Assembly (NCBI GenBank): GCA_038534095.1
Contig: JBCAXK010000013.1
Span: forward strand, 1-33,944
DNA from: Chlamydiota bacterium
Lineage (GTDB): Bacteria > Chlamydiota > Chlamydiia > Chlamydiales > SM23-39
DNA length: 33,944 nt
Direction of reading: 5' to 3'
Both the position numbers and the translations under genes were made by a program. This document shows, one piece after another, positions 18,219-20,438 of the stretch (the stretch's first letter is position 1; the number at the start of each line of letters is the position of its first letter). The notes below the pieces were generated by a model. It was given only the letters and a program-made list of their open reading frames with translations, made no database searches and was not told the origin of the DNA.

Positions 18219-20438
18219 ATGTTTGCTATTTCTGGTGCAATTGCTTGTGGAGAAGTTTTTTTTACCGATCATGAGTTTGTTCCTGAAGAAGAACAGCGCA
18301 CTCTAGGTGATGGTACTGTACACGCTTCGACAGATGGGAATAACCCTTCTACAGATAGGAATAACCCTCCTCTGGACTTCTTAAAGCTACTGAGTAACCG
18401 AGACGCTGTATATGCCCATCATTCTGCTTTACAAAGCCTCTATAGCATTCGGGCTACTTTCCATAAAAACACGGCAGATTGTCCCACAACGGATGATACT
18501 CCCACGTTAGGGCTCACAAATAAAGAAATGTCCGTACTCAATGCGATGTTAAATGGTTTTAGTAACCGCCGCGCTCATCTAATCGATCTATTTCTTACAC
18601 GCTTCCATGATCTACTCACCCGTTTAAAACAGCCTCTTGAACAGGTCTTACAATCAGAAAAAATAAGCAAACATTGGATTGCACGAAACGTGGTTAACAT
18701 CCGTACAAACTTGCGTGCTATGGAATCAGAGTCTGAAAATAAAGAAAAATTTGATTCTCTAAAAAAGGGTTACATACAGTTATTAGAAAAAAAACTTGTA
18801 ACTATACAAAGGATTTCGGATGTTGTCGAGAATGAATCTGCTTTTCATCATCTGAGGGATACCGCAAACGAGGTGCAAAACCTTCTCAACCTATTTATTT
18901 CCATTCTGAAAAAGGAGAAAGCCCTAAGTTTTCTTGTTGTCTACGATTTGTTTAAGATTGGACCTCGGAATATACCAGATATACCAGACGAGCCTGAAAA
19001 GCAGCTCACAGGTAGCTTATCTCATCTCAATACACTAGTAAATTTTTCCAATGATCTTTTTGCCTGCATGCGCACATCGCTAGTATTCAACCAGAAAATG
19101 GGGGCAAAAGATCTAAGGCAAACCGAAACTTGTTTGCAGGGACTTAATTCGTGGAAGACATTGTCCGATCGAAAAAATCTCGCCAAGAACATTGCAGCAT
19201 TTTACCCACAATTCTTGAATTGCATATCCATGCTCTACAAAAAAGCGCGAAAGACCTCCATTGAATTTTACAAAGTGGACGAGATATCGGAGCAGCGTCG
19301 GAAGGATATGCAAATAGGTAGGGAGGGTATGATTCTTTTAAAGGAAACATTTGAGGCAATAGATCGGCATTTACTCTACTATTTACTACCCATTGCTGGC
19401 AAAAAAAACGTGGCGCCAAAATTGATGCGCATCAAAAGGTTGTTCTCGCACATTCTTATCCAAGAAAACGCAAGCAAGGAAGGTCTGCCTCAGGAGATTA
19501 CAGGACTTGCAAAAAAACCCTCCGAAGGAGCTATCCAAGCAACCGCTAGAAAATTTCAGGAGTTTTGTAATGCTCTCATCAGAAAAATACAACAAACGCA
19601 AAATATTGTCTTTTACGATTCACTAAGAACAACAAACAAAGAGATCTCCAACGTTTCTGCAAAACAAAAAAAAGCGGGTCGCAAAAAATCGAAAAAAAAG
19701 GGCAAAAAAGGACAAAAGAATAACCGGCCTCAAAACAACATGCCTCCAATTTCTATGGAAGCAATAAAGGCCTTACTACAGACAAATCCAGTCGAAATCG
19801 TAAAATATTTTGAGCCAAAAAAACCAGATCTTTTGGCAAGCATGGATGAAGCTTTAACAGAAAAAATGGACGTATTACAACGTCAGATCCATGCACAAGG
19901 CTGGAAACCAGAACAAATTAAGGAACTACATAAAAAGCTATTGCAATCGTTTTTCCCTCTTGCCTACATACTTTTCTCGCTAGTAGACGCTTCAGAAATC
20001 TTAAATCCTTCCCCTAATCCATCTACAAATATTCTCGGAATCAGTGACAGTTTTTTCCGTGTTTTTGAAGGCTTTGAGTATGAAGAGCAAAAAGAAGATA
20101 TTGCTTCTAGCGCTAGAAAAAGAAGTTCCTCTTCTAAAGATTCGAAAGTTTCACGAGCGCAAAAACCCAAAGCTGCAAGACGACCTACTGCAAAGGAAAA
20201 AACGAGAAAACTCTTTAAATATTTAGCAGAGATGAATTATGTCAAGATATCTGGAGGGGGAAAAGGCAGCCATCTCGAATTCAGAAAAATCCATCATTCT
20301 GCATCGGGAGAAGATATGAAGGATACAAAAAGAAATGTAGTGACTATTCCCAAAGGCAAGAACGGGCATTTGTCATTAGGAACACATAAGTCTATCATGC
20401 GCTCTGTAAAAGGGTTTGAAGAAAAAATCCGCAGATAA
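18219..20438 (+). CDS. ~740-aa hypothetical protein with polybasic tract and C-terminal HicA-like RNase domain
   Basis: Long ORF (start uncertain: 18162, 18189 or 18219). C-terminus TRKLFKYLAEMNYVKISGGGKGSHLEFRK...VVTIPKGKNGHLSLGTHKSIMRSV matches the HicA/YcfA pattern. Confidence 0.8.
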   Translation: MFAISGAIACGEVFFTDHEFVPEEEQRTLGDGTVHASTDGNNPSTDRNNPPLDFLKLLSNRDAVYAHHSALQSLYSIRATFHKNTADCPTTDDTPTLGLTNKEMSVLNAMLNGFSNRRAHLIDLFLTRFHDLLTRLKQPLEQVLQSEKISKHWIARNVVNIRTNLRAMESESENKEKFDSLKKGYIQLLEKKLVTIQRISDVVENESAFHHLRDTANEVQNLLNLFISILKKEKALSFLVVYDLFKIGPRNIPDIPDEPEKQLTGSLSHLNTLVNFSNDLFACMRTSLVFNQKMGAKDLRQTETCLQGLNSWKTLSDRKNLAKNIAAFYPQFLNCISMLYKKARKTSIEFYKVDEISEQRRKDMQIGREGMILLKETFEAIDRHLLYYLLPIAGKKNVAPKLMRIKRLFSHILIQENASKEGLPQEITGLAKKPSEGAIQATARKFQEFCNALIRKIQQTQNIVFYDSLRTTNKEISNVSAKQKKAGRKKSKKKGKKGQKNNRPQNNMPPISMEAIKALLQTNPVEIVKYFEPKKPDLLASMDEALTEKMDVLQRQIHAQGWKPEQIKELHKKLLQSFFPLAYILFSLVDASEILNPSPNPSTNILGISDSFFRVFEGFEYEEQKEDIASSARKRSSSSKDSKVSRAQKPKAARRPTAKEKTRKLFKYLAEMNYVKISGGGKGSHLEFRKIHHSASGEDMKDTKRNVVTIPKGKNGHLSLGTHKSIMRSVKGFEEKIRR
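18330..18371 (+). repeat. In-frame 21-bp tandem duplication (TDGNNPS/TDRNNPP)
   Basis: ACAGATGGGAATAACCCTTCT / ACAGATAGGAATAACCCTCCT, 2 mismatches. Confidence 0.9.

Follow-up and report, generated by a model that had tools for sequence, protein, structure and literature searches.

Long chlamydial proteins tipped with a HicA-type RNase domain form a family of candidate secreted effectors

The HicA toxins of HicAB toxin-antitoxin systems, such as those of B. pseudomallei (4c26/6g26), S. pneumoniae (5yrz) and Y. pestis (HicA3, 4p78), are stand-alone proteins of ~60 aa. The chlamydial proteins described here share their fold, Gly-x-His motif and basic surface, whereas their HicA domain is the last tenth of a 560–890-aa chain that hicB does not adjoin. 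For Waddlia, the portion of PMC10880633 available to us deals with a small hicAB pair only. According to the available portion of PMC9424270, HicA has been reused as the C-terminal domain of larger, probably exported proteins, as in the chlamydial family, in the S8-PTS BetaH toxins and one RHS toxin. Those proteins come from Gram-positive bacteria, have signal peptides, immunity genes and 16 swapping tips, and were proposed to be antibacterial; in contrast, the chlamydial body is all-helical, and neither a known immunity family nor an exchange of tips between main-family bodies was seen. That toxin-antitoxin toxins can be turned into host effectors is established from the FIC proteins of Bartonella, in which a toxin domain from FicTA came to lie, by repeated independent fusions, on export-competent proteins (VbhT and the Bep effectors) that then expanded (PMC5675462, available portion). 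The chlamydial family appears similar in these respects, but the Bartonella proteins combine a FIC AMPylase with type IV secretion and a C-terminal BID signal (PMC5675462), whereas the chlamydial ones have a C-terminal HicA RNase domain and a putative N-terminal type III signal. Tandem arrays and lineage-specific copy number are also features of the NEX/PEX effectors of Neochlamydia and Protochlamydia, which have type III signals and LRR-bearing members (compare L076 below) but, unlike the HicA family, carry F-box, BTB or RING domains (PMC4209131, available portion).

The gene under study encodes a protein of 739 aa and lies in a window of 33,944 nt (the whole stretch of DNA analysed; contig JBCAXK010000013.1, assembly GCA_038534095.1) from a chlamydial genome of 1.62 Mb that is 96.6% complete. 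Its features and their surroundings are as follows.

18219..20438, + strand: whole gene (739 aa; P0001), a single open frame with a helical body, a low-complexity linker and a C-terminal HicA-type domain
18219..18374, + strand: N-terminal ~52 aa, the expected place of a secretion signal; residues 2–26 are not effector-like, residues 26–60 are Ser/Thr/Pro/Asn-rich
18414..19277, + strand: part of the helical body (residues 66–353) that matches the body-only family profile
19653..19733, + strand: basic patch, residues 479–505, with 13 Lys/Arg and 0 acidic residues in 27 aa
20016..20195, + strand: Ser/Lys/Arg-rich linker, residues ~600–659, from the sequence and the predicted disorder of the matching region in the relative L051
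20196..20435, + strand: HicA-type domain, from Pfam, model and profile, with a loop insertion between strands 2 and 3
20265..20273, + strand: Gly683-Ser684-His685, equivalent to Gly22 and His24 of B. pseudomallei HicA
20531..20647, no strand: miniature insertion element 3' of the gene and outside it, with 25-nt terminal inverted repeats that are 96% complementary
5515..10649, + strand: type III secretion genes (FlhB/YscU family, FHIPEP family, CopN, CesT-type chaperone), from Pfam; context only

The gene stands alone between marC (489 nt away) and truA (392 nt away), in agreement with the long flanks described in an earlier reading of the sequence alone. In a genome of the same genus (G283), marC and truA lie ~0.34 kb apart, the HicA fusion is absent from that site, and G283's own HicA fusion sits elsewhere in its genome. 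The GC content of the gene (0.39) is in the lowest 5–6% among the 703 long frames of the genome, and promoter and terminator scans of the locus gave chance-level results. The 739-aa frame starts at ATG 18219; TTG 18162 and ATG 18189 lie in frame upstream. ATG 18189 is missing from strain X2, a sequencing run of another study whose 6,159-nt contig covers window positions 17000–21343, so that 18219 is favoured as the start. The insertion element (115 nt missing from X2, with TA..TA ends) has one look-alike elsewhere in the genome (123 nt, contig C40), and G283 contains three 34-nt matches to it. The genome encodes the type III secretion genes that a type III effector presupposes, including a YscJ/FliF-family gene on a different contig. 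Two frames near these genes, at 1493–3820 (− strand, 775 aa, in a low-GC stretch) and 14504–15301 (− strand, 265 aa), have no Pfam match and are possible further effectors.

The X2 contig spans the body and the tip, and its three indels within the gene (−21, +42 and −21 nt, the +42 being calculated from record coordinates) are all multiples of three. The fusion is therefore no sequence error, a concern that the sequence-only reading had raised. A contig of a further run, X1, bridges the body-to-tip junction with 0 differences; X1 may be the source sample.

That reading had placed a HicA-type domain at the C-terminus, and Pfam HicA_toxin (PF07927) matches residues 663–729, with E 0.0034 and 17.9 bits for the whole protein and E 0.00023 and 21.6 bits for the last 91 aa. 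The match is below the curated 27-bit cut-off, which 22 of 24 relatives exceed. A single-sequence model of the last 91 aa (pLDDT 70) showed a helix, three strands and a helix, which is the HicA order, and the GSH motif was located as predicted, with Gly683 and His685 intact at the turn between strands 1 and 2, as in HicA. Both residues have functional counterparts, the toxicity of B. pseudomallei HicA requiring Gly22 and His24 (PMC3969222, available portion). The domain's own fold searches were weak: Foldseek gave no match at E ≤ 0.001, and a wide fold search returned three HicA chains at Z 4.0–4.5 only, below 1dq3 (Z 5.4), a fold that PMC3969222, in its available portion, names among the closest structural homologues of HicA. 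A profile of 24 fused domains, including that of the 739-aa protein, matched six solved HicA-family chains (E 5e-12 to 2e-5), its His pairing with the substituted position 24 of 4c26. For the tip model of L051, the three best matches were the HicA structures 1whz, 6g26 and 5yrz (Z 8.3, 7.8 and 7.3; rmsd 1.9–2.2 over 57–61 aligned residues). These results confirmed that the HicA domain is real and retains the catalytic Gly and His.

The gene, treated earlier as a one-off, belongs to a phylum-wide family. Pfam HicA matched 121 of the 300 Chlamydiota genomes scored and, among the matches listed (150 of 207), at least 24 besides the 739-aa gene were in frames over 600 aa. The 24-domain fused profile, run over 401 genomes (G005 left out or scored in part), found more among the matches listed. 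The loci fetched held 63 frames of at least 200 aa with a HicA domain; eight of these long matches, with HicA off the end or under 300 aa, were excluded. The family consists of at least 55 further proteins of 558–892 aa with HicA at the C-terminus, in at least 36 genomes and 10 families, often in tandem and with up to five copies per genome. All 56 fused proteins, the 739-aa one included, have the catalytic His, and 53 have the Gly; since a HicA profile served to pick most members, the invariance of the His is to some extent circular. Two members chosen by body alone (L096 and L097) also have the His, as judged by eye. In family f4, which we take to be Chlamydiaceae going by its Pmp domains (27 of 30 genomes), none of the 30 genomes matched the fusion profile.

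Single-sequence comparison returned only the 739-aa protein itself from 1.84 billion representatives, as did a word-indexed search with residues 660–739, and the only other row from 61 related genomes was a weak, stop-filled match. From the word-indexed database, an alignment of 32 family rows retrieved a single protein. P0011 is a 614-aa HicA-tipped protein whose body looks unrelated. Atlas searches gave no usable match, NCBIfam and PADLOC none for five sequences, and a plasmid search none for one member. Some members carry the database label 'HicA family toxin', which hides the 600-aa body.

The sequence-only reading had suggested looking for paralogs with the same body and other C-termini. 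No second copy of the HicA domain or body of the 739-aa gene was found in its own genome, and the intact body-positive genes among the best two candidates per genome all end HicA-like. One candidate, L098, matched the body over 94 columns in a frame of 1,338 aa that lacks HicA; the match was judged to be chance.

The tree of 78 HicA domains (70 columns) was largely unresolved, had no supported single group of fused domains, and placed the 739-aa protein on a long branch (1.38). Stand-alone HicA genes are common in the phylum, and L035, L055 and L057 cluster with two of them (support 96/86), a hint that the HicA fusion arose more than once. Eleven short stand-alone chlamydial HicAs (L005–L009, L015, L018, L022, L026, L028 and L030) form a clade of their own (96/92).

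Other architectures and traces of turnover were seen during the survey. L076:503-2803 is a separate fusion with a eukaryote-like body, consisting of three leucine-rich repeat blocks, an 11/12 basic run and a C-terminal HicA. In further fusions, HicA follows an Rce1/CAAX protease domain (L040:4917-6785) or a trypsin-like domain (L073:3815-5383), lies in mid-protein (L075:4126-5844), forms the N-terminus of two neighbouring paralogs (L084:4721-6652 and 8661-10349) or comes after a long helical region (L087:3611-6235). In G031 (3' end of L093, L094, 5' end of L095), the assembly breaks at the near-identical 3' ends of tandem copies whose bodies differ, a pattern suggestive of gene conversion at the HicA end. 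L055 and L057 share their neighbours (LysE, trehalose phosphatase, transaldolase, desaturase) and bodies that BLAST could not align; we read this site as very fast divergence or body replacement. Broken or fragmentary family copies (L088:3329-5330, L092:3599-6385 and L050:10239-10472) are consistent with birth-and-death turnover. A ubiquitin carboxyl-terminal hydrolase (UCH) gene lies just 5' of a family member on the same strand (L039:7967-9223).

N-terminal signals were judged by composition; serine bias is a modest predictor of secretion (ROC 0.73; PMC2668754, available portion). The median Ser/Thr/Pro/Asn fraction of residues 2–26 was 0.42 in 54 members, compared with 0.24 in 551 genome frames and 0.20 in 124 neighbours; the median per genome was 0.425, with 29 of 36 genomes at 0.32 or more. 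In the 739-aa protein the fraction was 0.12 in residues 2–26 and 0.48–0.52 in windows starting at 26–36. An effector-like layout, as suggested by the sequence-only reading, is supported at the level of the family; the N-terminus of this copy is an exception. The basic patch at residues 479–505 looks like a putative nuclear or nucleolar localisation signal. Runs with at least 8 of 12 basic residues occurred in 13 of 54 family proteins, including this one, versus 3 of 168 and 2 of 35 controls.

We lean towards the reading that the family member is a type III-secreted effector whose HicA RNase tip cuts host RNA. The HicA domain would have been taken from toxin-antitoxin systems and placed at the C-terminus of an effector, in a layout shown to comprise a disordered N-terminus, a ~530-aa all-helical body, a disordered linker and the HicA domain. 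The type III machine would read the N-terminus, and inside the bacterium the protein may be unfolded or shielded, so that an antitoxin would not be needed. In the host, the body and the basic patch may fix its place or partner, possibly in the nucleus or nucleolus, where the HicA tip would then cut RNA. The tandem copies, as also seen in chlamydial effector families (PMC4209131, available portion), the lack of a fusion at the marC–truA site of G283, and the HicA behind leucine-rich repeats and a basic run in L076 count for the effector reading; the restriction of basic runs to 13 of 54 proteins and the 24 of 55 bodies with no confident tie to the main family count against it.

The body was examined with a profile built from 27–31 bodies, with HicA removed and the 739-aa protein left out. 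Residues 66–353 matched it at E 7.5e-4 to 6.4e-5 among 12,411 sequences, outranking 12,099 other genome frames, 200 shuffles and 56 reversed bodies; the best genome background was 0.25–0.66, and shuffled or reversed sequences scored 2.4 or worse. A separate genome search recovered the gene at E 2.7e-5, and profile-profile comparison of its body with the family body gave E 2e-4 and a probability of 46%. These body profile results make the 739-aa gene a distant member of the main body family. The ~600-aa body, described earlier as unrecognised, is thus not unique, but it remains without a Pfam enzyme match. The 56 HicA-less bodies formed one cluster of 27, others of 5, 4, 3, 2 and 2, and 13 singletons; after iteration the main cluster held 31 proteins from 21 genomes and six families.

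The full-length model of L051 (pLDDT 72.8, pTM 0.64) showed disorder in the first 80 aa and in the linker (residues 618–678, the counterpart of the linker here, with pLDDT under 50), with an all-helical body between the two and the HicA tip at the end. Its body had no Foldseek match at E ≤ 0.001, a wide fold search gave generic helical bundles only (Z 7.3 or less), and comparison with PDB sequences gave no match under E 0.06. Complex prediction between the L051 body and HicA gave a score of 0.03 and a mark of 0.32. HicA was more conserved than the body in all 13 close pairs, and dN/dS was 0.06–0.51 for HicA (11 computable pairs) versus 0.21–0.54 for the body (12 pairs); the pairs are non-independent, and many are near saturation. 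As judged by these ratios, the tip and the body are under purifying selection, with the body evolving faster; under the effector reading, this may be because the body meets host factors.

Conservation of the body, which makes up three quarters of the protein, also allows for a secreted effector whose main activity resides in the helical body, with HicA as a binder of structured RNA or a weak nickase. HicA has a double-stranded-RNA-binding fold (PMC7180214, available portion), and 20 of 84 residues in the domain of the 739-aa protein are Lys or Arg. The His found in every fused protein argues for catalysis, however, and the body is unlike a catalytic domain, with no nearly invariant residue in the body-only alignment and no enzyme among its Pfam matches. 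We regard this alternative as unlikely.

No hicB was matched in the genome with Pfam PF15919 and PF05534, as the sequence-only reading had proposed for the neighbourhood. The 739-aa gene is not a HicAB system: it is no small stand-alone toxin gene and has no adjacent hicB. Neither HicB nor any other known immunity family was matched at 85 frames flanking the first 24 fusions. PF15919 gave 16 HicB matches, spread over 14 of 39 carrier genomes; comparison of coordinates by eye showed no match next to a long fusion. Inhibition in cis would make hicB needless, as expected if the protein were a single-chain toxin or regulator inside the bacterium, its body a built-in inhibitor and sensor, with a role in dormancy, stage switching or phage defence. 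The abundance of stand-alone HicA genes in the phylum and the atypical N-terminus of the 739-aa copy fit such a role. Disordered, Ser/Thr/Pro/Asn-rich N-termini across the family and basic runs suit export better, while patchy presence, tandem expansion and site turnover fit a core regulator poorly and the five members submitted to PADLOC gave no defence match; an internal toxin is unlikely in our judgement.

Because HicA is a known C-terminus of the BetaH and RHS polymorphic toxins (PMC9424270, available portion), we also considered that the protein may be an antibacterial weapon of polymorphic-toxin type, aimed at bacteria that share the host cell, and we rate this very unlikely. No known immunity family was matched in the flanking frames of the 24 loci; the only 65-aa frame 3' of the 739-aa gene begins in the insertion element that is missing from X2. 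The bodies match no RHS or BetaH-type family in Pfam, and the best two candidates per genome included no intact body with another tip.

X2 and the gene differ at 136 positions over 1,574 nt. X2 has one copy fewer of a 21-nt tandem unit at 18322–18363, and residues 670–701, including the catalytic motif, are unalignable (94 nt against 73), which counts against the effector reading for the 739-aa copy. In codons 1–65, 11 of 11 listed changes alter the residue, versus 1 of 7 in marC, a contrast that counts for the effector reading. With 40 of 223 differences listed, a stop codon in the X2 copy is possible. The neutral chance of 0 synonymous in 11 is ~0.05, calculated by hand from 47 of 195 sites. 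That this copy is decaying and no longer works within a real family is highly improbable: the long branch, loop insertion, atypical N-terminus, excess of amino-acid changes, unalignable catalytic stretch and the broken or split copies in G338 and G375 speak for it, but the copy retains an open 2.2-kb frame with its Gly and His, and all three X2 indels keep the frame despite the divergence.

Full-text literature searches returned no description of long HicA-tipped chlamydial proteins, although a mention in a domain table may exist, and 'HicA' is missing from the main text of PMC4209131 and PMC9816063. No characterised chlamydial effector of this architecture was found in these searches, as the sequence-only reading had supposed, and the HicA-tipped family is apparently undescribed so far.

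To our knowledge, little is known about host control by environmental chlamydiae, and an enzyme activity has been assigned to few of their effectors. The family offers a predicted effector activity whose fold is known and which can be tested at one residue. Few toxin-antitoxin toxins have been reused as effectors, and the family would bring an RNase to their number. Members are spread over at least 36 genomes and 10 families, but the Pmp-bearing family, that of human and animal chlamydiae, yielded no match. A named member, P0006, belongs to Estrella lausannensis, which grows in amoebae, so that the idea is open to testing. A bolder reading, which we put forward tentatively and which may well prove wrong, is that, on more than one occasion, environmental chlamydiae converted HicA into an RNase that is injected and cleaves eukaryotic RNA. 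Its targets would, just as tentatively, be host nucleolar or messenger RNA, or the transcripts of co-infecting giant viruses. Symbiont-mediated virus protection has been reported for Parachlamydia (PMC9457554, available portion). If true, the reading would define the first host-directed HicA effector class and provide a candidate mechanism for such protection.
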